Shown one piece after another: positions 7,738 through 62,461 of a stretch of DNA of 64,000 bases. The stretch's first letter is position 1. Every line of letters starts with the position of its first letter. The notes under the pieces are model-generated. The model saw only the letters and a program-made list of their open reading frames with translations. It was not told the origin of the DNA and searched no databases. A program made the position numbers and the translations under genes. This stretch comes from an uncultured delta proteobacterium. GTDB taxonomy: Bacteria > Myxococcota > Myxococcia > Myxococcales > UBA5297. The stretch lies in contig CAVYWD010000001.1 in assembly GCA_963772225.1 (NCBI GenBank), positions 1,314,706-1,378,705 on the forward strand, read 5' to 3'.

Positions 7738-8612
7738 AACCGTCATTCGTCGGCTGGCTGTTCGTCGCGCCCGCGCTCCTGGCCATCGCCGTGTTCTTCG
7801 TCATCCCGGTGGCGGCGGCGCTCGTCATGAGCGTCACCGACTTCGACCTCTACGCCCTGGCCGACCTGCACAACGTGCGCTTCATCGGCCTGGGCAACTA
7901 CGCCCAGCTGCTGCAGAGGCCGCTCTTCTGGCAGGCGCTCTTGAACACCCTGTTCTTCGTGGCCGTCGGCGTTCCGCTCTCCCTCGCGGCGTCGCTCGGG
8001 GCGGCGCTGCTCTTGAATTCGCCCCTGGCGCTCTTCAAGGGCCCTTTCCGCACCGCGCTCTTCGCCCCGGTGGTGACCACGCTCGCCGCGGTGGCGGTGG
8101 TCTGGCGCTTCCTCCTGCACACCCGCTACGGGCTCCTGAACTTCGGCCTGTCTTCCATAGGCCTTTCGCCCATCGACTGGCTGGGCGACCCGCGCTGGGC
8201 GATGCCGGCCATCGTGCTGCTCTCGGTGTGGAAGAACTTCGGCTACAACATGATCATCCTGCTCGCGGGGCTGCAGGCCATCCCCGGCGAGCTGTATGAG
8301 GCCGCGCGCCTGGACGGCGCCGGGCCCGTCGCCCTCCTCCGGCACATCACCCTGCCCGCCCTCGCGCCCATGCTGCTCATGGTGAGCATCCTCACCATGG
8401 CGGCCCACTTCCAGCTCTTCGCCGAGCCGTACGTCATGACGCAAGGCGGCCCGGCCGAGCGCACGGTCACGGTGCTCTACCTGATGTACGAGGAGGGCTT
8501 CAAATGGTGGAGCCTGGCCTCGGCGTCGGCGGTGGCGTTCGTGCTCTTCCTGTTCATGTTCGGCTTCACCGTCCTCCAGGTCCAGGTGTCGCGGCGCCGG
8601 GGTGCGGCATGA
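7734..8612 (+). CDS. ABC sugar permease (MalF/UgpA-like).
   Basis: Multi-TM protein with the EAA-like loop LQAIPGELYEAARLDGAG. ATGA overlap with the upstream stop. Confidence 0.9.
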   Translation: MKPSFVGWLFVAPALLAIAVFFVIPVAAALVMSVTDFDLYALADLHNVRFIGLGNYAQLLQRPLFWQALLNTLFFVAVGVPLSLAASLGAALLLNSPLALFKGPFRTALFAPVVTTLAAVAVVWRFLLHTRYGLLNFGLSSIGLSPIDWLGDPRWAMPAIVLLSVWKNFGYNMIILLAGLQAIPGELYEAARLDGAGPVALLRHITLPALAPMLLMVSILTMAAHFQLFAEPYVMTQGGPAERTVTVLYLMYEEGFKWWSLASASAVAFVLFLFMFGFTVLQVQVSRRRGAA

Positions 8613-19118: not shown

Positions 19119-21092
19119 TCAAATGGCTTCGATCGTCAACTGCACGTCCGTGCCCGTGTAGGTCGCCGTGACCGTGCTGAAGCCGTCCACGGTGATGGCG
19201 GCGAAGCTGCCGTGGCGCTCGCCGGCGGTCAACACGGTGAGGGTGTCGCCGACCGCGGGCTTGTAGGTGCCCGGAAAGCTCACATGGAGCACCCCGTTGT
19301 CAACGACCGCCGCGCCGCTCACGTTGAGCGCGCCTTGGCCGTTGGCCTTCATGGCGACCTCGAGCGTGCCGCCTTCGAGCAGGGTGAGCTCGCCTCCGAT
19401 CGCCAGGGAACCTGCCGCGTCGGAGAGCAAGGTGCCGCCGCTCACGAAGACATCGCCCTTGCCCAAGGCAGAGGTCGAGTCGGCTGCCAGGGTGCCGCCC
19501 TCCAGCTTGGTGCCGCCCGCGTAGGTATTGGCACCGGACAGGCGCAGGGTCCCCGTGCCCTGCTTGGTCAGCTTGCCGACGCCGGAGATGTCGTTCTTCC
19601 AGGCATCGGAGGCGCTGAACCCGCCCAGCGAGGCGTCCATGCTCACGGTCACGTCCCCATTGAAGGCGCCATAGCCGTCCGCCGCGGCGAAGAGGTTCAA
19701 GCGGCCCCAGCCCTCGACGTCGTCCATGATGGGATAGCCCGACGGCATGGCCGTGGTCTTGAGCACCACGCGGCGCTGCGCGCCCGTCAGGTACGGCAGG
19801 CGGGTCTCCAGCAGCACCTCGGCTCCCTTGGGAACCACCGCGGCCGCGGTCGTGCTGGCGATAGGAGTGAAATTGAACGTCATGCGCTTGAGGTAGCTCG
19901 CCTTGAGGGTGGCGTAATCCGCGAAACGATCGTTCGCGGCCGTTCCGGAATGAGCGTAGTGATACAGGTCGGCCGCGGTGGAGACGCCCGCTTGCGTTTG
20001 AAGCCAGGTGTGCGCCTGGGTCGCAGCCTGGGACCTCAGCGTCGAATTGGCCGACTTGCTCAGGTTGTAAGCGACGACTGCGATGGCCTGGATGCGGCCG
20101 CCCATCACGTCCAGGGGTGAGTGCATGCCCGCGAGAATTCGGTTCTCCCCCAGCTCCATGGCGCGGCTCAGCATCTCCTGGTAGCGCTCTGGCACCAGGT
20201 AGGCCATGGCCAAGGCGTCGCGCCAACCCTCGGCCGCGTGCCCGCTGATGAATCCACTGTCGGTGGCAGGCGTCGTGCTCTCGACGGGCACCAGCGAGGG
20301 GGGGACGACCACCATGCTGCTCCAGCGCCACGGGCGGGCATATTTGTAGAAGCGCTTCGCCGGCTCGGTGGAGGCGTCGGTGCCCATTGCGTTGATGAGG
20401 TCGACCGCCAACCCCATGTCCGTGTTCGCCGGGGCGGAGGCGGTAGCGGCGCTGCCCACGCCGGTGTTGTTGCCCCCGTCGTTATAGCTCTTCGTGTTCG
20501 CATCCGAGGCGATTCCGGTGATGGTCGTCGTTTGCTGGGTGCCCTTGATCCAAGCGGCCGTCAGCGGGCCCATTCCGTCGGTGACGCTGTAGCCCTTGCC
20601 CCGGCGGTCGTCCAGATACGCGGCCAGCTCCTGGTCGGCGCTTCGCGAAGCGGTCACTTTCTCGACGTAATCGATGTTGGCCACGTGCACGCTGGAGTTC
20701 TTCACGGATCCGTCGGTCGAATCGCGAGGAATGCCGGTCCAGACCGAAGCGGCGACGGCGGCGCAAGTGCCGCTGACGGGCGCCGTAACCCCCGCGCTCA
20801 CGAGAAGATCAATCGGCGTCCAAATGTCCAGGAAGCCGCGCACCACGCGCACGCCGGCGTTGGTATCCACCGTGGCGTGGCAAGCGTCTCCTCTCACATT
20901 GGTCGCGCCATCGTCCACATAGGCGGTGACCCCGTTCGCCGGGTCGGCGCTTTCGACGTTGCCGACGCCGGCCGGCTCCGCCGGGACGGTGTAGGTGTCA
21001 ACGCTGGGCTTGGGGGTTGACTTGTCGGAGCCGCAGGCTGCCAAGAAGGACAGCGCGACTCCAGCGAAGCTGGTTCTGAGGCGGTGAATCAT
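19119..21092 (-). CDS. Secreted PAP2-superfamily phosphatase/phosphoesterase lipoprotein with a C-terminal autotransporter-like passenger beta-repeat region.
   Basis: PAP2 motifs KYARP, SGHAA and NRILAGMHSPLD. C-terminal GTGTLRLSGANTYAGGTKLEGGTLA-type repeats. Lipobox LAAC. The start is ambiguous (21092 or 21110). Confidence 0.7.
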   Translation of the reverse strand: MIHRLRTSFAGVALSFLAACGSDKSTPKPSVDTYTVPAEPAGVGNVESADPANGVTAYVDDGATNVRGDACHATVDTNAGVRVVRGFLDIWTPIDLLVSAGVTAPVSGTCAAVAASVWTGIPRDSTDGSVKNSSVHVANIDYVEKVTASRSADQELAAYLDDRRGKGYSVTDGMGPLTAAWIKGTQQTTTITGIASDANTKSYNDGGNNTGVGSAATASAPANTDMGLAVDLINAMGTDASTEPAKRFYKYARPWRWSSMVVVPPSLVPVESTTPATDSGFISGHAAEGWRDALAMAYLVPERYQEMLSRAMELGENRILAGMHSPLDVMGGRIQAIAVVAYNLSKSANSTLRSQAATQAHTWLQTQAGVSTAADLYHYAHSGTAANDRFADYATLKASYLKRMTFNFTPIASTTAAAVVPKGAEVLLETRLPYLTGAQRRVVLKTTAMPSGYPIMDDVEGWGRLNLFAAADGYGAFNGDVTVSMDASLGGFSASDAWKNDISGVGKLTKQGTGTLRLSGANTYAGGTKLEGGTLAADSTSALGKGDVFVSGGTLLSDAAGSLAIGGELTLLEGGTLEVAMKANGQGALNVSGAAVVDNGVLHVSFPGTYKPAVGDTLTVLTAGERHGSFAAITVDGFSTVTATYTGTDVQLTIEAI

Positions 21093-21196
21093 CGGTCGTT
21101 TCGAAGGCATTAGGTCGATCACTCCACAAAGAGGGCTTGGCAGCCCTGCTGATGGGCAGCAAGACTGACTTGTATTCTTGTTAACTATCCTTGGAG

Positions 21197-21338
21197 CTTG
21201 ACGTCTCGCGTTCGCTCGTGTGACAACTGGGAGACACTCGGGTCAACACAATCCAGTTGCTCGACGTCTCGCGGCCGCTCATGCGACAAGTTGGAGACAT
21301 TCGGGCCGACACGATCCAGTTGCTTGACGATCGCCGAG
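21197..21338. repeat. Tandem direct repeat: two 63-bp units plus a 16-bp partial third copy (about 80% identity) in the divergent intergenic region.
   Basis: Unit 1 is 21197–21259, unit 2 is 21260–21322, and the partial copy is CTTGACGATCGCCGAG. The region is lower in GC than its surroundings. Confidence 0.8.
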
Positions 21339-21399
21339 CCAGCCCGGATATTGGCTTTCGGTCCAGTTCCGAAACAAATTAATTCAACCAGGAGATGTC

Positions 21400-23118
21400 A
21401 TGAAAATCCGCATCCGCGGGTTGATGCTGGCCTTCGTTATTCTGGCCGGCTTCGACGCACGAGCAGCGAGCGGCACCTTCACCACGCTGACCTATAATGT
21501 CGCTGGATTACCCCAGGGTTTGTCGAGCGCACCGAGCGACCGCCAGGCGTCGACGCAGCTCATCAGCTGCTATGTCAATGCTTTTGACATCGTGAACGTC
21601 CAGGAGGACTTCAACTACCACGCCGCGCTGTACGACACCTGCGACAACCACCCCTTTCGGTCGGCGACCTCCGGCGGCGCCGCCTTCGGCAGCGGCCTCA
21701 ACACCATGAGCCGCTTCCCTTTCGCCGACTGGGAGCGGGTCGGTTGGGATACCTGCAACGGCGTGGATTGCCTGACCCCGAAGGGCTTCACCGTGGCGAG
21801 AGTTCGCCTCGCCGAAGGCGTCTATGTCGACATCTACAACCTGCACGCACAGGCCCAGACCGCTGACGCCGACCTGGCGTCTCGCCGCTCCGACATCCTT
21901 CAGCTCGCCCATTACATGGAGAACTATTCGGCCGGTCACGCGGTCATCGTCATGGGAGACACCAATACCCGCTATACCCGCGAAGGCGACAATATCTGGG
22001 AGTTCTTGCGGCGCGGCGCGAGCGACGCGTGGGTCGACCTCGTGAGAAGCGGTGCCGTGCCGGCGCCGGGTTTGGACGCCATGGTCTGCGACCCCGGCTA
22101 CACCAGCCCGAACTGCGAGGTCGTGGACAAGGTGCTCTATCGCGACAACGGGTACGTCGGGCTCAAGGCCATCGCCTACTCGATTCAGACCGACACCCAG
22201 AACGCGGCCGGCCAGGAGCTCTCGGACCACCGTCCGGTCGCGGTGACCTGGAGCTTCGCCACCCCGAGCGACCTCAAGCTCAGCGACACCTGGGGCGGCC
22301 CGCACGAGGAGCCGTTCGATGACGTGGCCAGCTTGCCGGCGAGCCCCGCCGCGAGCGCGGTCGCGCTGCGCACCGGCAGCCGCGTGGACCACGTGGAGAT
22401 CACCCTGAGCAATGGCTACGTGCTCTCGCACGGCGGCACCGGGGGCGACCCCAGCGCGCTGGCCTTGGCGAGCGACGAGTACCTCACCTCGCTCTCCGTT
22501 TGCTCTGGCCTCCACAACAACGCGACCAGCGTCTTCTACGCGCAGTTCACGACCAGCGCCGGGCGCACCCTGGCCGGAGGCTCGGCCACCTCGAATTGCC
22601 AGACGTATACGGCTCCCAGCGGCTGGCAGATCGTCGGCTTCCACGGCCGCGCGGGCGACGAGGTCGACGCGCTCGGCGTCGTGTACGCTCCGCGCGTCGC
22701 CAAGCCCGGACCCGCGGCGTTTGACGAGATGGTCAACGAGCTCTCCGGCCAGTGCCTGGACATCACGAAGGTCTCGATGGCGAATGGCACCAGCATGGAG
22801 CAATGGCCGTGCAATGGCGGCGACTGGCAGCGGTGGAGCTACGACGCCAACTCGGGCCTCATTCGAAGCCAGCGCGACCCCCGCTTTTGCCTCGACAACA
22901 GCGGCACCTTCGCCGATGGCGCGAACCTGGTCCTTTGGAGCTGCAGCGGCAACGCCAATCAGCGCTTTACTCTCGACACCTCGAGCGGCGCGATTCGGAT
23001 GCGGACCTACCCGCAGCAGGTGCTGGACGTCACTAATCTGAGCAACGCCGCCGGGGCACCGGTCGAGACCTGGTCCTGGTGGGGCGGCGCCAACCAGATC
23101 TGGAGCCTCGTGCCCTGA
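21400..23118 (+). CDS. Secreted multidomain protein: endonuclease/exonuclease/phosphatase (sphingomyelinase-like) domain + jacalin-like lectin + ricin-B (QxW) lectin.
   Basis: Signal peptide. The EEP region (LTYNVAGLP...VMGDTNTRY...SDHRPV), jacalin-like HGGTGG, and three QxW repeats (EQWPCNGGDWQRW, LVLWSCSGNANQRF, ETWSWWGGANQIW). Confidence 0.75.
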   Translation: MKIRIRGLMLAFVILAGFDARAASGTFTTLTYNVAGLPQGLSSAPSDRQASTQLISCYVNAFDIVNVQEDFNYHAALYDTCDNHPFRSATSGGAAFGSGLNTMSRFPFADWERVGWDTCNGVDCLTPKGFTVARVRLAEGVYVDIYNLHAQAQTADADLASRRSDILQLAHYMENYSAGHAVIVMGDTNTRYTREGDNIWEFLRRGASDAWVDLVRSGAVPAPGLDAMVCDPGYTSPNCEVVDKVLYRDNGYVGLKAIAYSIQTDTQNAAGQELSDHRPVAVTWSFATPSDLKLSDTWGGPHEEPFDDVASLPASPAASAVALRTGSRVDHVEITLSNGYVLSHGGTGGDPSALALASDEYLTSLSVCSGLHNNATSVFYAQFTTSAGRTLAGGSATSNCQTYTAPSGWQIVGFHGRAGDEVDALGVVYAPRVAKPGPAAFDEMVNELSGQCLDITKVSMANGTSMEQWPCNGGDWQRWSYDANSGLIRSQRDPRFCLDNSGTFADGANLVLWSCSGNANQRFTLDTSSGAIRMRTYPQQVLDVTNLSNAAGAPVETWSWWGGANQIWSLVP

Positions 23119-23260
23119 CCGCGAGCGGTCGGGAAGGGTGACGAGCGGTCGGGAGCGGTGGGCCCGCTCTCGACCGCGAGTCGTCGCGGCTGCTGCGGGA
23201 GGGGGACGGACGGCGTCGGCTCGAGCCGCAAACGCGCGGCCTCGAGGCGCCGGGGCGGCG

Positions 23261-25090
23261 CTACTTCGCGGAGTCAATCTCGTACTTGCGGAGCCGATAA
23301 GCGAGCTTCGGCCGGCTGATGCCCAAGGTCCTGGCGGCGAGGGAGAGATTGCCGTTCGATTTGACCACCGCCGCGCGCAGCATGGCGGCCTCGGCTTCGG
23401 CCAGGCGCTGGATGTCTCCCGGCCCGGGAAGCGCTTCGGGGCCCGGCATGACGCGATCGGGCGCGAGGACGATGTTGCCGTTGCGCTGCAGGGCGAACGA
23501 GGACGAGTCGAACTCTTCTCCAGAGGTAAACAGGTGGCAGAGGTCGAGCGCGCCGCCGCCGTCGGACAGGATGACGGCGCGCTCGATCATGTTCTCGAGC
23601 TCGCGGACGTTCCCGGGCCAGTCGTAATTGAACAGCGCGTGGACCGCCCGCTCTCGAAAGCCGGTGATCACCTTGCCGTGCTTGGCGGCGAAGCGCTGCA
23701 AGAGCCAATTCATCATCAGCGGGATGTCGTCGCGGCGCTCCCGCAGCGGCGGCACCTTGATGGGGAAGACGTTGAGGCGAAAGAACAGGTCCTCCCGGAA
23801 GGTCCCGGCCTTCACCGCCTGGCGGAGGTTGACGTTGGTGGCGGACACGACGCGCACGTCGATCTTCCGCGTCCGCGTGTCCCCCACCCGCTCGATCTCC
23901 CCTTGCTGCAGCGCCCTCAAAAGCTTGCTCTGCGCCGTGAGGCTGAGCGTGCCGATCTCGTCGAGGAAGAGCGTGCCGCCGTGGGCGCGCTCGTTCCAGC
24001 CCGGGTATTTCTCCTCCAGCCAGTCGCGGCAATCCGGGGTCATGCCGGCAGCCGGGTTCCACCAGACGGTCGGCCGCCAGAACCACACGCCCAGGTGATA
24101 GGCGTGGTGCTGGTAGTTGAACTCGTTGATCATCTTCTCCCAGTACCAGGGGAGCTCGAGGCCCAGGTCGATGAGCGAGCGCTCGAATTGGCCGACGATC
24201 CACTCCTGCATGAACTCCTTGAACGACTGCTTCCGGTGCTGGAGCGGCGTGTAGTAGTCCATCGCCGGGCCGGTGAGGACGCCGAAGATGCGCCAGGCGC
24301 GGGCGATGGCCATGTCCACCAGCTTCTGCGCCTCCTGCTTGCGCCCGTTGCTGATGAGCACCTCGAGCGCGGGCCCGCCTATCTGCGCGTGGCGCGATTC
24401 GTCGGTCTGGATGCTGGAGATGAGGCTCGAGAACGTGTAATCGCGCGCCTCGGCGGCGTCGGCCGCCAGCCCCAGGAACTGCATGTTGGTGAAGCCCGTC
24501 TCGAAGGCGAAGGTGAGCATCACCGCGATGTCGGTGGCGCTCCGGCCCAGGAAGAGGTCGTCGAAGGTGTGGCGCGCGGCGATCGCGCCCCACTCGTTGG
24601 AGTGGTAGGCCTTGTGGGCCCAGTCGAATTGCCGGTCCTTGGAGCAGTGCTCGTGGGGAAAGAAGAGCTGCAGCTGGGCGTGGCGGTTCTCGTCGAGCAT
24701 GCCGTAGGTCGCCATGTTGCGCATGCCCGGCGCCCGGCCGAAGCGCACCATCCGCGCCTCGGCGCTCATGGCCCCGTATTCGCCCAGGGCGATGGCGCCG
24801 TAGTGGGCCTTGAGAATGGACAGCCAGCCCGGGTCGGCCTCCTGGAGAAGGCGATTGCGCTCCAGCGCCGCCTTCACAGAATAGGCGCCTGCGTCCTTCT
24901 CGCGCTGAATGCGCACGTATTCGGGGAACGAGACCTTGTAGGGCTCGTCGTAGACTTCCCACTTCTCCACCGGCACGCCCTTGGCGCCGGTCATCACGTC
25001 GGGGAAGAGCTCGGACTCTGCCACGTAGGTGGGCGTCCAAGTGGTTCGGCGCGCAATCTCGTACCACTCGCTGCGGTCCAACAAGGCCAT
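23261..25090 (-). CDS. Chimeric ORF: N-terminal ~370 aa of a soluble diiron monooxygenase hydroxylase alpha-subunit (toluene/phenol monooxygenase type) fused in frame to the C-terminal half of a sigma-54-dependent activator (Walker B to Fis-type HTH).
   Basis: Two E..H diiron motifs (DENRH, DESRH) about 97 aa apart, as in TouA/DmpN/MmoX. From [10 protein letters not shown] onward the sequence is ...GAFTRFDLFFRL...ESRRDDIP...[10 protein letters not shown]...LSLAARTLGISRPKLAYRLRKY. The ATG at 25090 has a GAGGAGG ribosome-binding site; the junction is near 23980. Confidence 0.7.
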   Translation of the reverse strand: MALLDRSEWYEIARRTTWTPTYVAESELFPDVMTGAKGVPVEKWEVYDEPYKVSFPEYVRIQREKDAGAYSVKAALERNRLLQEADPGWLSILKAHYGAIALGEYGAMSAEARMVRFGRAPGMRNMATYGMLDENRHAQLQLFFPHEHCSKDRQFDWAHKAYHSNEWGAIAARHTFDDLFLGRSATDIAVMLTFAFETGFTNMQFLGLAADAAEARDYTFSSLISSIQTDESRHAQIGGPALEVLISNGRKQEAQKLVDMAIARAWRIFGVLTGPAMDYYTPLQHRKQSFKEFMQEWIVGQFERSLIDLGLELPWYWEKMINEFNYQHHAYHLGVWFWRPTVWWNPAAGMTPDCRDWLEEKYPGWNERAHGGTLFLDEIGTLSLTAQSKLLRALQQGEIERVGDTRTRKIDVRVVSATNVNLRQAVKAGTFREDLFFRLNVFPIKVPPLRERRDDIPLMMNWLLQRFAAKHGKVITGFRERAVHALFNYDWPGNVRELENMIERAVILSDGGGALDLCHLFTSGEEFDSSSFALQRNGNIVLAPDRVMPGPEALPGPGDIQRLAEAEAAMLRAAVVKSNGNLSLAARTLGISRPKLAYRLRKYEIDSAK

Positions 25091-25158
25091 GGTGGTGCCT
25101 CCTCTTTCGCGGGGCTGGCTCTCGCTTCGAATCGGTGAGGCTGCGGCTCGCCATTTGA

Positions 25159-25173
25159 GCAAGCGCGGTGCCA
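25159..25173 (-). promoter_or_regulatory. Sigma-54 (-24/-12) promoter TGGCAC-N5-TTGC for the monooxygenase-fusion gene.
   Basis: The reverse complement of 25159–25173 is TGGCACCGCGCTTGC, about 70 nt upstream of the ATG at 25090. Confidence 0.6.
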
Positions 25174-25279
25174 CCGGGCCGGACGCCCTCGAACGCGGCG
25201 CTGCGCCACGGCGCAGGCCGTGGGCTCCCGGGGCTCCTTCGATTTGATGCGTCGGGTCACGCAAGGCGTTCACCCTGGA

Positions 25280-25297
25280 TTTCACCATTTGGTGAAA
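25280..25297. promoter_or_regulatory. Perfect inverted repeat TTTCACCA-TT-TGGTGAAA ~110–140 bp upstream of the sigma-54 promoter; candidate activator UAS. Adjacent AT-rich GATTGTC repeats may be an IHF-like site.
   Basis: Palindrome read directly from the sequence; its position fits XylR/DmpR-type UAS geometry. Confidence 0.3.
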
Positions 25298-25477
25298 TAC
25301 CATGGCTTCTGAGATTGTCGATGATTGTCATGATTTCATGAAAATCTCGAGAATAGGCTCCGCTGTCGCGACGCGTTACGCGCCGGCCCGATCCGGCGAG
25401 GTCCTTAGCTTCAGGGCGGGCCCGCGTGACCGCTGATGTGCTTTCACATAGAGTTGTAGATTCGACGCGAGGTCGCT

Positions 25478-25825
25478 ATGAGCAGGACCAAGACGCCCGG
25501 CGCCAAGAAGGCCGTGAGCTTGAGGCGAGACCGGCGCAACGCCTACGGGGAGAACGCCAAGGCGTCGCGCAAGGCCATCCCGCGACGAAAGGCGCTCTCC
25601 CAGCGCTCGGCCCGGCGCGCCGCCGCGGTGGCGATCCACGGCCTCGCGCAGGAGTCCTCGGCCCACGTCGAAGAGCCCTCGGACCGGCGCCTCGCGGACG
25701 CGAGAGCCAAGGTCCGCCGGGGGTTCCGCAAGTCCCCCGACCCGCCGCTCGGAGAGCGGGTGGAGAAGAAGCTCGCCCATCGCCGCCTGCTCGACGCCGA
25801 AGGCGACCGCCAGCGCCGGCGATAG
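25478..25825 (+). CDS. Hypothetical small, highly basic (Arg/Lys-rich) protein encoded within the regulatory intergenic region.
   Basis: 115-aa ORF with GC3-rich codon usage and a GAGGT upstream of the ATG; no recognisable domain. Confidence 0.3.
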
Positions 25826-25920
25826 AGCCAGAGGCTCGCCTTCGACTGCTGGGTGCCCGGCATGGCGCCGACGTTCTCACTTTGATAAGACCCCTTCTCG
25901 AGATGAAAAGGAGGCCCCGC

Positions 25921-27549
25921 ATGCGCGCCGCCGACCTGGACCTGCGAGAGCTGCTCCAATTCGACCCCGAGGGCGGCGTCATTCGCTTCGGCGGTCAGCG
26001 CGCGCTGGTGCTCGACGCGGTGGCGCTCGGCATCCTGCGCCGCGAGCTCATCGAGACGATCGGCCTCTCCGGGGCGCGCGGCATCCTCACTCGGTTCGGC
26101 TACGCGCACGGCTGGCGAACCGCCGAGAGCCTTCGCGCCGCCTTCCCCTGGGACGACCCGGACGAATGGCGCCAGGCCGGCGGTCGCCTCCACACGCTGC
26201 AGGGCCTGGCCGTCGTGGAGGCGACCGCGGCCGACGGCAGCGATGCCCAGCACCTCGCCGACGCCCTCTGGCACGACTCCTACGAGGCCGACCAACACCT
26301 GCTTCACTTGGGCCAGGCGGAGGAGCCGGTGTGCTGGACGCTCACCGGCTTCGCCAGCGGCTACCTCTCGCTCTGCCATGGCCGGGAGATCCTCTGCGTT
26401 GAAAGGCGCTGCCGCGGCCAGGGCGACGCCGCCTGCCACCTCGTCGGCCGCGCCCGCGAGGACTGGGGCGAGGCCGCCGCCCAGCACCTCCCGTTCTACC
26501 GGAAGGAGTGCATGGACAAGGCGCTCCTCCACGTGACCGACGAGCTCAAGCGCGTCGAGCAGCAGCTGCGCGCGCGCAGGCGGGCGCTCGGGCCCGCCGC
26601 GCGGGCGGTCGACCGCTCCGGGCTCATCGCGCAGAGCGAGCCCATGCTGCGCGCCCTCGAGCTGGCGCGCAGGGTGGCGCAGGTCGACTCCACCCTGCTC
26701 GTCACCGGCGAGAGCGGCGTCGGCAAAGAGCGGATCGCCCGGCTCATCCACGACGAGTCCAAAAGGAGGTCGGGGCCCTTCGTGGCCATCAACTGCGGGG
26801 CGGTGCCCGAGAGCCTGCTCGAGTCCGAGCTCTTCGGCCACGCCAAGGGCGCCTTCACCGGCGCCGCGCAGGACCGGCCCGGCCTCTTCGAGGCGGCGAA
26901 CGGCGGGACGCTGTTCCTCGACGAGATCGGCGAGGTTCCGCCGGCGATGCAGGTGAAGCTCTTGCGGGCGCTCCAGCAGCGCGAGGTGCGCCGCGTCGGC
27001 GAAAACCAGAGCCGAAAGGTCAACGCGCGCGTCATCGCCGCGACCAACCGCGACCTTTCCGCCGAGATCCGCGCGGCGCGCTTTCGCCAGGACCTCTACT
27101 ACCGCCTGCGCGTGGTGGAGCTGCGCGTGCCCCCGCTGCGCGAGCGCCGCGACGACATCTTGCCCCTCGCGCGCGCCTTCCTCGTCGACGCCAGCGCCCG
27201 CACCGGCCGAAAGATCTCCGCGCTGACTCCGCGGGCGGCGAACCGGCTGGTGCGCTACGCCTGGCCGGGCAACGTGCGAGAGCTCGAGAACGCGGTCGAG
27301 CGCGCCGTCGTCTTGGCTCAGGGCCACCGCCTCGATCTCGACGACTTCCCCGAGGAGGTCGGGCTCGCGCTCCCCGGCGCGGGTGCGCAGGGCGACGCGC
27401 GGTCGCTGGAGGCGGTCGAGCGCGACCACATCCTCGCGGTGCTCCGCGCCAACGGCGGCAACAAGGCGAAGGCGGCGCAGCAGCTGCAAATCGGCATCGC
27501 CACCCTCTACCGCAAGCTGAAGCAGTACGAGGCCCCGCCCCGGCGCTGA
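25921..27549 (+). CDS. Sigma-54-dependent transcriptional activator of the XylR/DmpR (NtrC) family, with an XylR_N/V4R-type aromatic-sensing N-terminal domain.
   Basis: N-terminal [20 protein letters not shown] (XylR_N-like). AAA+ motifs [33 protein letters not shown]. Fis-type HTH at the C-terminus. AGGAGG ribosome-binding site 6 nt before the ATG. Confidence 0.85.
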
Positions 27550-27555
27550 CAGCTT

Positions 27556-28443
27556 CTAGCCGAACTGCACCGACCGCTTCGTGAACGCGCTGTCCATCCA
27601 CCACCCCGTGATGGGGAAGGTGGTCTTCGGTCGCTCGTCCGCGACCGCGCCGGCCGCGACCAGGAGCGGCGCGTAGTGGTCCCAGCCCGGATGCGCCAGT
27701 CGCGCTCCCGGGGCGCGCTCCAGGAAGCGCTCGAGCGACTCAAGGTCCAGGCGCGTCAGCGCGCTCTCGGCCCAGGCGTCGAACTCGCGCGCCCACTCCG
27801 GGATCCCCGGGCGGAACGCGTAGCGCATGTTGTGCGTCAAGAACCCGCTCGCGAAGAGGAGGACGCCTTCGTCGCGCAGGGGCGCGAGCGCGCGGCCGAG
27901 CTCGACGAGCCGCTCCGGCACGAGCTCGGGGAGCGACAGCTGGATCACCGGGATGTCGGCGCTCGGGTACATCCCCAGGAGCGGGACGTAGGTCCCGTGG
28001 TCCAGACCGCGCCCCGGGTCGTCGGCGCACGCGATGCTCTTCTGCTTCAGCAGCTCGCGAACGCGCGCCGCGAGCTCCGGGGCGCCGGGCGAGGGGTATT
28101 TCAGACGGTAATACTTCTCGGGAAATCCGAAGAAATCGTAAACGAGCGGCCAGGGCTCCGTCGCGCCCAAGGTGGCCGTCTTCTCCATCCAATGCGCCGA
28201 GACCGAGAGGATGCTCTTCGGGCGCGGCAGCGCCTTCGCCCACCCGGCGAGCTCGCCCATCCACACCTCGTCGTCGAGCAGCACCGGCGCGCCGTGCGCC
28301 GCGTAGAGGACCGGCATTCGCCCACTCGGTGCGTTCGCCTTCGTCTCCTCTGAAGTCGCCATGGCCTTCCTTTCCTGGCGCAGATTCCCGGCGGCCATCC
28401 ATGGCAGCGCCGCGATCGCGCGAAGCACGTCTCGTCGATTCAT
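27556..28443 (-). CDS. Class III extradiol ring-cleavage dioxygenase (LigB/DODA family), Tat-exported.
   Basis: Tat-like MNRRDVLRAIAALPWMAAG. The core ...LSVSAHW...DHG..VPL... is typical of the LigB/YgiD family. Confidence 0.75.
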   Translation of the reverse strand: MNRRDVLRAIAALPWMAAGNLRQERKAMATSEETKANAPSGRMPVLYAAHGAPVLLDDEVWMGELAGWAKALPRPKSILSVSAHWMEKTATLGATEPWPLVYDFFGFPEKYYRLKYPSPGAPELAARVRELLKQKSIACADDPGRGLDHGTYVPLLGMYPSADIPVIQLSLPELVPERLVELGRALAPLRDEGVLLFASGFLTHNMRYAFRPGIPEWAREFDAWAESALTRLDLESLERFLERAPGARLAHPGWDHYAPLLVAAGAVADERPKTTFPITGWWMDSAFTKRSVQFG

Positions 28444-28455
28444 GGTCCCTGCACC

Positions 28456-29154
28456 TCAGGCGAGGTCGAACACGAGCACCTCGGCGTCCTCGCCCGCGCT
28501 CAACTCGAAGCTCGTCTCGAAGCTGAGGGCCGCGCCGTCTCCTTCGCCCAATGGCGCGCCGTTGAGGGTAACGGCGCCGGCCGCCACCTGAACCCAGGCG
28601 TGCCGCCGCGGCCCCAGAGCGCCCGCGACAGACTTGCCTTGCGAGAAACGAGTCGCGAAGAGCGCCGCGTCCTGGTGCCACGAGAGCGACCCGCCCCGCC
28701 CGTCGCGCGAGGCGATGAGCCGCAGGCCGTCGCGCAGGTCGCCCTGCTCGAAGCGCCTCTGCTCGTAGCCGGGGGTGAGCCCCTTCTTCTCCGGGAGCAT
28801 CCAGATCTGAAGGAAATGCACCGGCTCGCTCTTCGAGGGGTTCCACTCGCTGTGAAAGACGCCGGTGCCGGCGCTCATCCGCTGTACGTCGCCGGGCTTT
28901 AGGGTCGAGCCGTTCCCCAGGCTGTCCTTGTGCTCGAGGGCTCCCGACAAGACGTACGAGACGATCTCCATATCCCGGCGCGGGTGCGTGCCGAAGCCCG
29001 AGCTCGGCCGAACGCGGTCGTCGTTGACGACGCGCAGGGCCCGAAAGCCCATGCACGAGGGGTCGTAGAACTGGTCGAAGGAGAACGTGTGCCGGCTGTC
29101 GAGCCAGTCCGTCATCGAGCGTCCTCTGTCATCCGCGCGGCGAACCGTGATCAT
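28456..29154 (-). CDS. Pirin-family protein (quercetin 2,3-dioxygenase-like cupin).
   Basis: HPHRGFETVTY-like block (GFGTHPRRDMEIVSYVLSG) and two cupin domains. AGGAGAAGGA ribosome-binding site. Confidence 0.85.
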   Translation of the reverse strand: MITVRRADDRGRSMTDWLDSRHTFSFDQFYDPSCMGFRALRVVNDDRVRPSSGFGTHPRRDMEIVSYVLSGALEHKDSLGNGSTLKPGDVQRMSAGTGVFHSEWNPSKSEPVHFLQIWMLPEKKGLTPGYEQRRFEQGDLRDGLRLIASRDGRGGSLSWHQDAALFATRFSQGKSVAGALGPRRHAWVQVAAGAVTLNGAPLGEGDGAALSFETSFELSAGEDAEVLVFDLA

Positions 29155-29376
29155 GGCGTCCTTCTCCTGGCAGACAATTGTGCACAGGTCATGCCCGGCG
29201 CTCCTACCGCCAGATTTCAGCCGGTTGACCAAGAGCGGCGCGCGCCGTTCCTCTCATCATGATATTCCACCTCTCATTATGAGAATTGGCTCCACACCGG
29301 CGGGCGCCGAGGCGATGGTGTCTTGAAGCAGCCGCCGCGGCGCCGCGCCTCCGGACCGAGCCGCGCCAGGTCCGAT

Positions 29377-46860: not shown

Positions 46861-47250
46861 TCTGTGCCTTTCACCGGAGCGCTCCGAGGCGAACCGCCGC
46901 CGAAGCGCCCGCCCGCAATGATGATACCCGGGCCGCTGCCGCCGAGGTGGAGCGCGCACACGCGGGCGCGCCGGTCGGGGCGGTGCTGCGGGTCCTCGGC
47001 CTGGCCGACCCGGCGGCCCGCGGCCGCGCGCGACACCGCACCACCCGCTACGACTTCGAGTCGGCCCTGGGACGCTCGGCGGCGTTCCGACGCGCGGTCG
47101 AGCAGGCGCGGGGTGCCACCACGAACGACCTGCCGGTGGTGCTGACCGGCGAGTCCGGCACCGGCAAGGAGCTGTTCGCCCAGTCCATCCACGCCGGGAG
47201 CGGCCGCAGCGGCAGGCCGTTCGTGGCGCTCAACTGCGCCTCGCTTCCAG

Positions 47251-47545
47251 CGGCGCTGATCGAATCGGAGCTGTTCGGCTACGAGGCGGGGGCCTTCACC
47301 GGCGCCGCGCCGGGGGGAAAGGCCGGGCCGGTTCGAGGACGCCGACCGCGGGACGCTCTTCCTGGACGAGCTGAGCGAGCTGCCGCCGCCGGCGAAGGTG
47401 GCGCTGCTGCGGGTGCTGCAGGAGGGCGAGGTGGTGCGAATCGGAGGCAGCGCGGCCCGGCGGGTGGACGTCCGGGTGCTGGGGGCGACGAATCGGCCGC
47501 TCGACGCCGAGGTCCGCGCCGGCCGGTTCCGGCGCGACCTCTACT
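47251..47545 (+). repeat. Direct repeat copy 1 (~290 bp of the sigma-54 activator AAA+ coding segment) flanking the insertion.
   Basis: About 80–85% identical to 48317–48600 by eye (CGATCGAATCGGAGCTGTTCGGCT...TTCACCGG.GCCGCGCCGGGGGAA...). Confidence 0.75.
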
Positions 47546-47794
47546 AGGGACGCCGCGCGCGGTTTCGACCATCAGTGCGCGCTCGACCACCAGGGTCGGC
47601 CGACCCAAGGCATGTCCCAGAGGGGGGCCTGCAGCGACTTCCGCGCGCGGCGCCAGTCAAGCCATCGAAGGCATTCATGCGGCGCGCGACCCGGCCGGCG
47701 GACTCCGTTGGAGATCCGTTCGAGCGGTCTTCTCGAGCGCCCATTCTCAGCGAGCGCCGAGGACTGACGTTTCATCGTCCAGAGCGAATCCAGC

Positions 47795-59246: not shown

Positions 59247-59538
59247 AATGGGCCTCGGTCGTCGATGTGCTGTCAGACGCGCCGGACCCTAGTCCTCGCA
59301 GCGAGGCGATCAAGAGACGGGCCCTCGGCTGGACGGGCGCAGGGCGGCTGCAAAGCGGACACTCGCCCGGCTCCTCTGCCCACGAGCAGGCCCCTGCCCT
59401 TTTTGTCAGAATCCTGAGGTGCACCTTCGACAAAACTGAGGCCCCGAAAGCCTCGCGGTTCAGCGATTTCGCGGACTTCGCCAATGGCACCGCCCTCGCA
59501 CTGTCAGGCTTCGATCGGCCTTTCCTAAGGAGACTCCC

Positions 59539-62461
59539 ATGAGGCGCTTCGCCCTCGCCGCCGCCCTCCTCGCCGCAGCAGCGGGGTGCTCGAGCAAGCC
59601 TTCGACCCAGCGCATCGTCGGCCTGACCAGCTTCCTCTCGGCCCCGCCCGCCGGCGTGAGCGCCGCGCGGGACGCTGCGTCTGCCAACGCGGGCGGCGCC
59701 TCCGCCGCCCCGACCGCGAACAGCGGGGCCTCGGCCTCGGCGTCGACGACCCCTCGAACCGTGGAGGAGACCGACCTCTACCGCCTCGAGGGCGACCGCC
59801 TCTATTACCTGAACGGTTACCGCGGGCTCATGGTGTTCGACCTCTCTCAGGTCGACCAGCCCAGGCTCATCGGGCGCTCGCCGATCTACGGCTCGCCGGT
59901 GGACATGATCGTCCGCGACGGCGTGGCCATCGTGGTGGTCGCCGACTGGTATGGACAGCTCGACGACGGCACGCCCTTCCACGGCTCCATCGTGCGCGGG
60001 CTCGACGCCAAAGACCCCTCGAACATCAAGGTGCTCGGCGAGGCCAAGCTGGGCGGCTGGGTGCAGGACGATCGCGTGGTGGGCAACGTGCTTTACGCCG
60101 TGAGCGAGGACTACGGCTGGGTTTACGGCTGGGACACGGCGACCGGCGTCGCGAGCAGCAACCAGCCGACGGTCATCGTCTCCTCGGTGAGCTTCAACGA
60201 CAACGTCATCCAGGCGGTGGGCAACCAGCGGTTCGACGGGTACGGCGGCGTCTTCAACGTGACGCCGAATTCCATCCTGCTCGCCCACGACGCCGGGACG
60301 TCCTCGGCGCAGACCGAGCTCTTCTACCTGGACATCAGCGACCCCAACGGCGCCATCGCCCCGCGCGGGCGCATCGTCGTCGACGGCCGGGTCCAGGGCT
60401 GGGGCGCCGACAACGGCCGCTGGAACCTCGACTTCGCGGACGGCAAGACCGCGCACGTGGTCGGCTGCGCCGGCAGCGCGTACTGCGACGGCACCTCCGG
60501 CTTCATGCTCGACACGGTGGACTTCTCCGACCCAGATGCGCCGGCGCTCAAGTCCGCGCTCGCCATCCCGGCCGCCGGGTGGGCGGTCTCCGCCCGCTTC
60601 GACGCGAACCGCCTCTATCTCTCGCCCTCCAGCTGGTCGGGCTCCACCACGCCCTTCGCCGTCTACGACCTGAGCGATCCCGCGCACCCGGCGCTCGCCG
60701 GCTCTGCCACCATCCCGGGCTCGGTGTGGATCATCGATCCCCGCGCCCCAGGAGCGGCTCTTCGCGCTCGGCAGCGACTCGACCCAGGGCTCCTATGGCG
60801 AGCAGGTCTCCCTCAAGTACCTGGACGTCTCGAGCGCCTCCTCGCCCGCGCTCTTGGGCACGTCGACCTTCGGCCAGGGCTGGGCGTGGACGCCGGCGGC
60901 CGGGACCTTCAAGGCCTTCACCATGGACGCGACGCAGGGCCTGGTGGTCCTGCCCTTCAGCGGCTGGAGCGCGCAGAGCCAGTCGTACCTGAACGGCCTG
61001 CAGCTCATCGAGTTCAACGCCACCTCCGAGCGCACCGCGGGCACCGCGTACACCAAAGGCTGGGTCGAGCGCGGCATCTTCGCGAAGGGGCGCCTGGTCT
61101 CGCTCAGCGACACCGCGCTGTCGGTCATCGACTACGCGAACCACGATGCTCCGAACGTGACGGCGGCGCTGACGCTCGCCCGTAACGTCATCGCCGCGCA
61201 GCCTTCCGGGGCGACCATCGCCGAGGTCTCGAGCGACTGGTGGGACAACGACGTCTCCACCTCCGAGGTCCGCGTGCTCCCGCTCGCCGACGCGGAAGAG
61301 TCGACCGACGCCGGGGACGTCCCGTCGGCACTGGTGGAGGGCGTCAACGCGCAGGTCTTCCGCAACGGGGACTTCGCCTATCTGGTGACCAACGTGCGCG
61401 AGCCTTCGGCCTGCCCGGTCGCCTCGGACGGAAAGTCTGCGCAGGGGACCTGCTGGGCCCGGGCGCAGCAGGTCCAGGTGGTCGACGTGTCCAACGGCGG
61501 CGCCAAGCTGCGCGGAAAGGTGCGCCTGCCCGCCGATCCCTGGGGCTATTACGGCTGGGGCTGGTTTGGCTGCTTCTGGTACGACTGGTTCGACGGCGCC
61601 GACGTCGTGCAGGTGGGAAAGGACGCGCTGGCGCTGCGGCGCTGGGAGCCGCTCTACGGCCCCAACGGCCTCTACCTCGACAGCACCAGCGCCCTCTACC
61701 TCGTCGATCTCTCGAACCCCGACGCGCCGTCGCTCGCCTCCACCACCATCACCAGCGACCCCGAGGGCTGGTGGGGCAACATGCAGGTCGTGGGCTCGAC
61801 GCTCTACACCACCCACTACGAGTGGTACGACCGGAGCGGGGCGCAGGACGGGTGGACGGTGCGCTACTACGCCGACCGCATCGACCTGTCCGATCGCCAC
61901 CACCCGCGCGTGGAGGCGAAGATCAGCGTCCCCGGGCTCATCGTCGGCGGCGCCGAAGCAGATCCGTCGCTGCTCTACACCATCGACTACCGCTGGTCGA
62001 ACGGAGAGGCCCACAACGACTTCGACGTGGTGCGCGTCAGCGGCGACCAGGCCGAGCTGCTCTCCACGACGGCCATCGACGGCTGGGTCGGCAGCACGTT
62101 CGTGCGCGGCAGCAAGGCATACTTCTCGGCACAGCAGTACTACTCCACCGCGGGCTCCTACAGCTCCCAGGTGAGCCTGCACGCGCTCGACCTGGCCGAT
62201 CCATCGGCGCCGGTGGACCGGGTCAGCACCGGCCAGAAGGGCTGGGGCTGGCTGCTCGCGGTCGAGGGCGACCGCGCGGTGATCAGCTCAGGCTGGGGCT
62301 ACAACGGCGTCGACCTCTACACGCTCGCCGACGGCCAGGCGCCCAAGTACACCCAGTTCGCGCGCACGCGGGGCTTTTGGACCAACGCCGTCTCGCGACA
62401 GGACAGCGCGCTCTTCCTCTCCAGCGGCTACTGGGGCGTGCAGCGCATCGACCTAAAATAG
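59539..62461 (+). CDS. Large secreted beta-propeller-repeat lipoprotein (~970 aa), with an apparent frameshift near 60740–60750.
   Basis: Lipobox LAAAAGCSS. Repeated LY..D.S.P..P-type blades in both the 59539-frame and the 60854-frame ORFs; ...IPGSVWIIDPRA in frame 1 continues as PQERLFALGSDSTQGSYGEQVSLKYLDVS in frame 2. Confidence 0.7.

Follow-up and report, generated by a model that had tools for sequence, protein, structure and literature searches.

The minus-strand open reading frame at 23261-25090 of the window (by which we mean the whole 64,000-nucleotide stretch of DNA analyzed) fuses, with no change of frame, the N-terminal part of a diiron monooxygenase alpha-subunit to the C-terminal part of a sigma-54 activator. 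We read this locus, with a probability of roughly 0.8, as the remnant of a tbu/tmo-type toluene/benzene monooxygenase cluster that underwent an internal deletion, leaving a probable dead gene with an orphaned promoter. The chimeric frame is probably an ordinary pseudogene remnant rather than a new kind of protein. Its features are:

23261..25090, minus strand: chimeric 609-aa ORF, a probable pseudogene; alpha residues 1-366 and activator residues 367-609 in frame
23993..25090, minus strand: alpha-derived part, codons 1-366, with the Phenol_Hydrox domain and six diiron ligands; lacks the C-terminal ~134 residues
23261..23992, minus strand: activator-derived part, codons 367-609 plus stop, Walker B to HTH_8; lacks XylR_N/V4R, Walker A and GAFTGA
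23951..23980, minus strand: Walker B motif, residues 371-380, four codons past the junction
23282..23404, minus strand: Fis-type HTH_8 DNA-binding domain of the activator remnant (Pfam)
25098..25103, minus strand: ribosome-binding site AGGAGG, 7 nt 5' of the ATG

The start of the frame was placed at the ATG at 25090, given the AGGAGG upstream and collinearity with residue 1 of T4moA, and the stop codon lies at 23261-23263. Searching Pfam with a 610-aa version of the protein, which carries one additional N-terminal residue, identified Phenol_Hydrox (PF02332, E 3.4e-68, model positions 1-228 of 230) followed on the C-terminal side by Sigma54_activat (model positions 85-167 of 168 only), AAA_lid_14, and HTH_8. 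The alpha part aligned without gaps over residues 1-368 to both T4moH alpha (3DHG, E ~1e-192) and ToMOH alpha (1T0Q, E ~1e-178), with the six diiron ligands (E104, E134, H137, E197, E231, and H234) and T201 conserved. An earlier, sequence-only reading of this DNA had described a truncated diiron alpha-subunit with both E..H motifs fused in frame to the 3' part of a sigma-54 activator, and the domain searches and structure alignments bear this out, including the proposed kinship of the N-terminal part with soluble diiron monooxygenase alpha-subunits. A full-length alpha-subunit (~500 aa with its C-terminal domain) was not found in the frame, since homology stops at residue 366-368 while homologues run to 496-505 aa; compared with T4moH and ToMOH alpha, the protein ends after residue 366 of ~500 and has no partner subunits. 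At the protein level the alpha part was 92% identical to its match P0001 in a protein collection search, and its nucleotide identity to related loci was 80-89%.

The activator part retains Walker B, sensor I, the R-finger, sensor II, the AAA lid, and HTH_8, and its top NCBIfam match was MobR (model positions 320-544). Walker A (GxxGxGKE) and GAFTGA were looked for in the chimeric frame and were not found, and Pfam detected no XylR_N or V4R sensing domain in it, although both are present in the divergently oriented neighbor and in the activator of Paraburkholderia heleia (locus L002). The remnant therefore shares Walker B, the R-finger, sensor II, the lid, and HTH_8 with XylR/DmpR/MobR/CapR-type proteins, the nearest solved relative being CapR (6IY8), but lacks their XylR_N/V4R domains, Walker A, and GAFTGA loop. 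Its best match in a scan of GTDB representative genomes was the P. heleia protein, at 81% identity.

Both homology blocks occur on one strand, 4428-5288 nt apart, in 13 related loci from Paraburkholderia, Ralstonia, Cupriavidus, and others, whereas in the window the same two blocks abut with a 3-nt overlap. In P. heleia the order is alpha, TmoB, a ferredoxin-sized ORF without a Pfam match (Rieske domains are found in the gene at this place in locus L084), an MmoB/DmpM effector, beta, a Fer2/FAD/NAD reductase, and a 609-aa activator of XylR_N-V4R-AAA-HTH architecture. When the seven proteins of the P. heleia cluster were used as tblastn queries against the 64-kb window, none of the beta, gamma, ferredoxin, effector, and reductase genes was detected, in agreement with the sequence-only reading that none of them follows the fusion.

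This arrangement is that of tbuA1UBVA2C-tbuT of Ralstonia pickettii PKO1 and its homologues in Paraburkholderia, Burkholderia, Ralstonia, and Cupriavidus (L002-L016), in which a sigma-54 promoter and paired upstream activating sequences (UAS) precede the alpha gene, as they do here, and an XylR/DmpR-family activator lies downstream on the same strand, as does the remnant here; the 13 relatives share this order. TbuT is the cognate activator of tbuA1UBVA2C (PMC6449761). Identity to these loci was 80-86% (nucleotide) for the alpha part and 71-81% (amino acid) for the activator part. Relative to them, the window lacks ~4.7 kb that would encode the C-terminal end of alpha, the gamma, ferredoxin, effector, beta, and reductase proteins, and the first ~60% of the activator. 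The genes flanking the remnant are unrelated to the flanks of the proteobacterial tbu loci, and the Toluene_X (TodX-like) gene that lies beside the activator in P. heleia has no counterpart in the window.

The upstream region of the alpha sequence contains the following elements:

25159..25173, minus strand: sigma-54 -24/-12 promoter TGGCACCGCGCTTGC, a perfect TGGCAC-N5-TTGC; position kept in relatives
25279..25298: proximal candidate UAS palindrome ATTTCACCA-TT-TGGTGAAAT, ~116 nt upstream of the -24 element
25323..25346: distal candidate UAS palindrome GATTGTCATGA / TCATGAAAATC, the counterpart of TTGATCAnnTGATCAA-type sites in relatives

The promoter sequence TGGCACCGCGCTTGC was the sole exact match in the 64 kb, against 0.08 expected, and at least one match arose in 8 of 100 shuffles. 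XylR/DmpR-type regulators bind paired palindromes of 16-20 nt located 100-200 nt upstream of -24/-12 promoters, with a quoted center spacing of 29-42 nt (PMC6449761). Two palindromes lie within that 100-200 nt range upstream of the alpha gene here, and their center-to-center distance of 46 nt is slightly greater than the quoted spacing, with both sites falling in the same alignment columns in relatives. In the nearest relative, the flanking sequence has diverged around a conserved promoter and conserved palindromes, and these elements are conserved and collinear across 14 relatives as well. The sequence-only reading had already placed this promoter and a palindromic UAS candidate 5' of alpha.

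The two halves of the frame meet at a short stretch that both parental sequences share:

23991..23993, minus strand: deletion junction, a CGA microhomology present in both parents, alpha (..TGGAACGAC..) and activator (..TTCGAGCGC..)

The CGA sits in an in-frame patch in which 9 of 15 nt match (PGWND versus PGRFE), 12 nt upstream of GGTLFLDE, and the four codons between the junction and Walker B (ERAH) are TbuT-type; after codon 366 an intact alpha would run on as ..GACACCTTCGGCAAG.. / ..TGGAACGACACSTTCGGCAAG... Recombination at the conserved Walker B region, as had been suggested from the letters of the sequence, is ruled out as homologous exchange, because the join lies four codons 5' of that motif and rests on 3 nt of microhomology. 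The position of both blocks on one strand in 13 loci, with the missing subunits between them in P. heleia, points instead to a plain deletion within one cluster. The ancestor would have been a horizontally mobile four-component cluster on one strand, ordered as the UAS pair, sigma-54 promoter, alpha, TmoB-like gamma, ferredoxin, effector, beta, reductase, and XylR/TbuT-type activator. A single illegitimate, microhomology-mediated deletion of ~4.7 kb, extending from alpha codon 367 to approximately codon 363 of the activator, may then have removed the intervening genes, its two ends being joined in frame by chance; the same event would have destroyed the operon's cognate downstream activator.

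The principal alternative, which we consider unlikely, is that an assembly or read artefact produced the fusion from a genome with an intact cluster or two separate loci, through a chimeric read or a mis-join. The junction is known from one assembly, and no independent contig crosses it: Logan contigs from run ERR11594402 span 19402-23617 and 26905-28806, ending at 23617 and 26905 in the conserved GNVRELEN and Walker B motifs. The protein collection also lacks the fusion, although it includes three neighboring proteins encoded on this 1.45 Mb contig, and the window contains at least two probable frameshifts, including one in the G6 run at 47304-47309, so the assembly is not error-free. However, the two parts are collinear, with the strand and order of intact clusters, and the Logan contigs support both flanks at 99.95-100% identity. 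The join is a 3-nt microhomology with no shared repeat, it falls upstream of the repeated Walker B rather than within it, and the codons leading into the motif are of the TbuT type. Exact matches shared by the alpha and activator genes of seven relatives reached at most 11-13 nt, and these longest matches lay away from the junction, so a k-mer mis-join is not expected.

Under the deletion reading, the fused product would be unable to form a hydroxylase because it has lost the alpha C-terminal domain and the window supplies neither beta, gamma, and effector proteins nor an electron-transfer partner. Nor would it be able to act as an activator, since it has no domain for sensing effectors, no Walker A, and no GAFTGA loop to contact sigma-54. 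With the cognate activator lost in the same deletion, the intact promoter and UAS are probably orphaned and would probably be silent unless another XylR-family protein cross-activates them.

We gauged decay of the fusion by comparing each half with its homologues. The alpha part has one private change at columns that are at least 95% conserved, versus a mean of 1.65 across 120 homologues, and the activator part has six, versus four to five in other deep branches. Counts of nonsynonymous and synonymous changes were 16 and 28 on the window branch, versus 8 and 34 on its sister (Fisher p=0.09), and 12 assigned amino-acid changes fell on the window branch versus 3 on the sister branch (p=0.035). 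The slight decay in both halves indicates that the putative deletion is evolutionarily recent. Good preservation of both halves could alternatively reflect selection on the fusion.

That the fusion is a functional new gene, either a UAS-binding repressor or dominant-negative poison of hexamers or a diiron sensor on a DNA-binding domain, strikes us as highly improbable. In its favor, the fusion has kept its frame, promoter, UAS, and ribosome-binding site intact, as well as the diiron ligands, Walker B, R-finger, and HTH, and the slight decay is compatible with such a role, but no homologue of the same architecture was found: none of the 120 matches listed from a search of 5.8 billion proteins carried both halves in one protein (top query coverage, 68%), and a degenerate search of JGI metagenomes with the junction peptide YPGWNERAHGGT returned no match. 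Exact look-ups of the 610-, 680-, and 609-aa versions of the fusion protein likewise returned no record. The in-frame outcome has a one-in-three prior and follows from the in-frame microhomology patch, and the nonsynonymous rate is mildly raised on the window branch. The T4moH and ToMOH structures show that alpha requires partner subunits for a stable hydroxylase, and the alpha fragment lacks them. We give equally little credence to the specific scenario in which the fusion is expressed by cross-activation, its HTH-bearing, ATPase-dead regulator portion occupying tbu-type UAS or poisoning mixed hexamers; if that were true, a deletion between an enzyme gene and its regulator would have given rise to a regulatory gene.

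Recombination of the operon with a separate sigma-54 activator paralogue located elsewhere, the partner favored by the sequence-only reading, is very doubtful: such high-GC genomes encode sigma-54 activators in large numbers, and the window itself has another, broken one at ~47.1-47.5 kb, but the fused part shares 71-81% identity with the activators directly 3' of the closest monooxygenase clusters, versus only 41% with the neighboring activator and ~45-60% with the 47-kb fragment, and both halves co-diverge with the same loci, in which the blocks lie 4.4-5.3 kb apart on one strand, making one ancestral cluster the simplest account. We also rejected the 47-kb fragment as the source of the activator's lost 5' half, since it covers sequence that the fusion still has (model positions 84-159) and its identity to the P. 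heleia activator is only ~45-53%.

On the deletion reading, a single microhomology-mediated event would have stripped the cluster of five structural genes and its cognate regulator while leaving an orphan sigma-54 promoter, an example of catabolic cluster decay following horizontal transfer. A comparable case is the lone tmoA remnant of Burkholderia vietnamiensis G4, a toluene monooxygenase cluster cut down to its alpha gene, in which the loss was ascribed to transposases (PMC6449761), whereas here a clean microhomology deletion appears to have created an in-frame fusion with a regulator. A literature search for similar remnants found nothing relevant, and no paper mentioning run ERR11594402 was found. 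The remnant opens no long-standing question; its value lies in two cautions for annotation, namely that a long, clean ORF with a promoter and perfect catalytic motifs can be a dead deletion product, and that a regulator of the right family nearby can reflect a coincidence of insertion site.

The second caution concerns the activator encoded divergently from the remnant, which is separated from the UAS by a small reading frame:

25478..25825, plus strand: short conserved ORF of 115 aa, basic, lying between the UAS and the divergently encoded activator and outside the monooxygenase remnant
25921..27549, plus strand: intact sigma-54 activator, XylR_N + V4R + Sigma54_activat + HTH_8 (Pfam)

The sequence-only reading had paired this gene with the operon as a divergent regulatory module. 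The XylR_N-V4R activator is real, but its partnership with the operon is improbable, given the small ORF in between and the context of its orthologues. Those orthologues (76% identical) keep an activator-LigB-pirin synteny and face yceI, a gene with a sigma-54-like promoter of its own, and none of the related monooxygenase loci has a divergent activator upstream, the place being taken by a histidine kinase in locus L088. Judged from these gene neighborhoods, the divergent activator is probably a resident backbone gene and not the cognate regulator of the monooxygenase. Its named homologues come from Polyangia/Myxococcales and Gemmatimonadota MAGs, and host GC was 62-74%.

The fusion ORF begins as a monooxygenase and ends as an activator, as the sequence-only reading had described. 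In the Pfam search, for which the query was one residue longer than the 609-aa protein, an N-terminal Phenol_Hydrox domain was followed by a partial Sigma54_activat match (model positions 85-167 only, of 168), AAA_lid_14 and HTH_8. Residues 1-368 aligned without gaps to residues 1-368 of both T4moA (3DHG; E 1.7e-192) and ToMOH alpha (1T0Q), placing this part among the soluble diiron monooxygenase alpha subunits, and both proposed diiron motifs are intact, with all six ligands (E104, E134, H137, E197, E231 and H234) and likewise T201 kept. The activator-derived end comprises 243 residues, beginning four codons ahead of the Walker B motif, and NCBIfam matches it best to MobR, a phenol regulator (model positions 320-544). 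It contains the R-finger, sensor II, lid and HTH; Pfam and a residue check found no Walker A, GAFTGA or XylR_N/V4R sensing domain in it. The mechanically called ORF extends to an upstream ATG at 25303, and we take ATG 25090 to be the true start because AGGAGG lies 7 nt before it and it is collinear with residue 1 of toluene monooxygenase alpha subunits of solved structure. The features of the region are:

23261-25090, minus strand, fusion ORF of 609 aa, a single ORF
25159-25173, minus strand, sigma-54 -24/-12 promoter TGGCACCGCGCTTGC
25279-25298, perfect palindrome of 9+9 nt, about 116 nt from the -24 element
25323-25346, palindrome of 11+11 nt (91%), about 162 nt from the -24 element
25478-25825, plus strand, small basic ORF of 115 aa, GC3 0.90 (host-like), between the UAS and the divergent activator
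25921-27549, plus strand, divergent activator, complete XylR_N-V4R-AAA-HTH by Pfam

At the DNA level the alpha part shows 80-89% identity to its counterparts in Paraburkholderia, Burkholderia, Ralstonia, Cupriavidus, Acidocella and several MAGs, and the activator part shares 71-81% protein identity with the activator within those same loci. In 13 of them the two homology blocks share a strand and are separated by 4428-5288 nt (median about 4.7 kb); in the window they abut, overlapping by 3 nt. The Paraburkholderia heleia locus (L002) reads:

Gene 1, alpha subunit
Gene 2, TmoB
Gene 3, ferredoxin-sized ORF, no Pfam match
Gene 4, MmoB/DmpM effector
Gene 5, beta subunit
Gene 6, Fer2/FAD/NAD reductase
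Gene 7, XylR_N-V4R-AAA-HTH activator, 609 aa
Gene 8, Toluene_X-family (TodX-like) gene, opposite strand

R. pickettii PKO1 has the same arrangement, tbuA1UBVA2C-tbuT (PMC6449761). At the position of the ferredoxin-sized ORF, another related locus (L084) has a gene with Rieske domains. Byrne and Olsen (1996) reportedly placed tbuT downstream, with part of its expression coming by read-through from PtbuA1. When all seven P. heleia proteins were compared with the 64 kb window by tblastn, only the two retained pieces and unrelated sigma-54 domains were found, in agreement with the earlier remark that beta, gamma, effector, ferredoxin and reductase genes are missing. Given the 13 collinear loci and the two pieces left, the fusion appears to be an internal deletion of one cluster, not recombination with a distant paralogue. 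The tbu-type homology reaches only as far as the fusion ORF's stop codon. The left flank has, on the minus strand, a gene for a PAP2/PATR-repeat protein (19119-21122) and, on the plus strand, one for an endonuclease/exonuclease/phosphatase-jacalin-ricin B lectin protein (21400-23118), both unrelated to aromatic catabolism.

Around the join the window reads ..TACCCGGGCTGGAACGAGCGCGCCCAC.., the alpha gene of relatives ..CCSGGCTGGAACGACACSTTCGGC.. and their activator gene ..CCSGGSCGSTTCGAGCGSGCC... The crossover is a shared CGA (23991-23993) between N366 and E367, which lies outside the Walker B DNA motif, 12 nt upstream, so recombination at Walker B, as first proposed, is not what is seen; the motif itself is repeated among sigma-54 activator paralogues. 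Since the CGA lies within an in-frame patch, PGWND versus PGRFE (9/15 nt match), the product stayed in frame, and the junction fits a biological microhomology deletion. We propose that the alpha front and activator tail of one tbu-type cluster were joined by such a deletion at the shared CGA, which would have taken the cognate regulator too. The simplest reading is a recent pseudogene, and we put the probability of a real deletion pseudogene at about 0.8; the locus would then be an ordinary though neat remnant of a known cluster type.

It is unlikely that an artefact, such as a chimeric read, made the fusion. The window comes from a 1.45 Mb contig in NCBI and ENA linked to run ERR11594402, and Logan contigs of this run agree with the two flanks (100% and 99.95% identity). 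In favor of an artefact, they end at 23617 and 26905 with none crossing the junction, and the assembly is imperfect, since the window has at least two probable frameshifts elsewhere (about 47.3 kb and 59.4-62.5 kb). The fusion protein, moreover, has no record in a 15-billion-protein collection that includes its same-contig neighbors P0121, P0122 and P0123, perhaps having been passed over as a pseudogene or left uncalled. However, in seven relatives the alpha and activator genes share exact matches of at most 11-13 nt, located elsewhere than the join, leaving an assembler that works by k-mers or overlaps no reason for a mis-join at these points. The Logan breaks lie in conserved sigma-54 motif DNA within the fusion ORF (23617) and in Walker B motif DNA of the divergent activator (26905), both k-mers repeated among sigma-54 activator paralogues.

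That the fusion is a functional new gene seems highly improbable. Hydroxylases such as T4moH and ToMOH need the alpha C-terminal domain, beta, gamma, effector and electron-transfer proteins, and PspF/NtrC-type AAA+ activators need ATP binding and GAFTGA contact with sigma-54; we infer that the fusion protein would have the requirements of neither. Its architecture appears to be a one-off among the 120 matches listed from 5.8 billion proteins and in JGI metagenomes, because none of the former spans both halves (best query coverage 68%) and the junction peptide has no match in the latter. The alpha part carries one private substitution (G216R) at columns at least 95% conserved (mean of 120 homologues, 1.65), and the activator part six at columns invariant in 12 relatives (4-5 on other deep branches). 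When changes between the window and its relative L083 were polarized with four outgroups, nonsynonymous/synonymous counts were 16/28 on the window branch and 8/34 on the sister branch (Fisher p=0.09), with 12 versus 3 assigned amino-acid changes (p=0.035), mostly conservative. These counts point to mildly and recently relaxed constraint on the window branch, whose post-deletion share we roughly estimate as small, of the order of 15%. Recombination with a distant activator paralogue, as originally suggested, is very doubtful, the fused activator type sitting downstream on the same strand in related monooxygenase loci, 13 of which hold both blocks.

The promoter with palindromic UAS candidates was borne out. 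TGGCACCGCGCTTGC is the sole exact TGGCAC-N5-TTGC match in the window (0.08 expected; at least one match in 8/100 shuffles). Compared with the closest relative whose alpha gene is intact (L083/L088; 92% amino-acid, 88.7% nucleotide identity), both palindromes, the -24/-12 element and the ribosome-binding site are conserved blocks amid diverged sequence. All relatives in a 15-sequence alignment share this layout, some with textbook TTGATCAnnTGATCAA sites, and several have exact -24/-12 matches ~75-125 nt ahead of the alpha start. The layout agrees with XylR/DmpR/TbuT-type sites described in PMC6449761. With the cognate regulator deleted, the fusion promoter is probably left with no activator of its own. 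Activators of this kind are known to cross-regulate, as TbmR/TbuT do (cited in PMC6449761).

The original observation was confirmed and its interpretation partly supported, with the fusion and promoter standing and paralogue recombination very doubtful. The proposed divergent regulatory module held only in that the activator is complete and XylR-type. Its identity to the fused activator part is only 41%, and no monooxygenase relative examined has a divergent activator upstream of alpha; in L088, the closest lineage, the upstream gene is a same-strand SBP-HisKA-HATPase sensor kinase. Metagenomes contain many homologues of the divergent activator at 70-81%, few of them named (Polyangia/Myxococcales and Gemmatimonadota MAGs). 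Three contigs with a 76% orthologue have the order yceI (divergent)-activator-LigB-pirin, of which the window keeps activator-LigB-pirin (25921-29232) and lacks yceI. Based on this synteny, the yceI partner elsewhere and the monooxygenase relatives, the divergent activator is probably a resident backbone gene, with the monooxygenase remnant occupying the place of its usual partner.

Besides yceI, orthologues of the divergent activator face a hemerythrin or AhpC gene. In one such locus, L085, the only sigma-54-like promoter in 17.6 kb is TGGCGCGACGTTTGC, directed at yceI and accompanied in the yceI/activator intergenic region (7839-8001) by the palindrome GATAAGCA-N8-TGCTTATC; this set may represent an unstudied regulon of the XylR_N-V4R activator family. 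The 115-aa ORF has no Pfam match and 591 full-length collinear relatives (E <=0.001) among 1.84 billion representatives, suggesting an uncharacterized conserved small-protein family.

Elsewhere in the window, a Beta_propel (PF09826) gene (59440-62461, plus strand) is apparently split into two overlapping ORFs, which suggests a frameshift, possibly from indel errors of assembly:

59440-61185, plus strand, Beta_propel ORF a, model positions 10-132
60674-62461, plus strand, Beta_propel ORF b, model positions 360-493

At 47070-47547 (plus strand), a second, lone sigma-54 AAA+ domain runs in two frames (Pfam model positions 3-86, then 84-159). The frame shifts in a G6 run (47304-47309), and deleting one G rejoins it, up to a stop after FRRDLY with no lid or HTH beyond. 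Two readings of this domain fit, a further broken activator or a homopolymer error with truncation after it, and its break and the fusion junction fall at the same Sigma54_activat model position (about 85).
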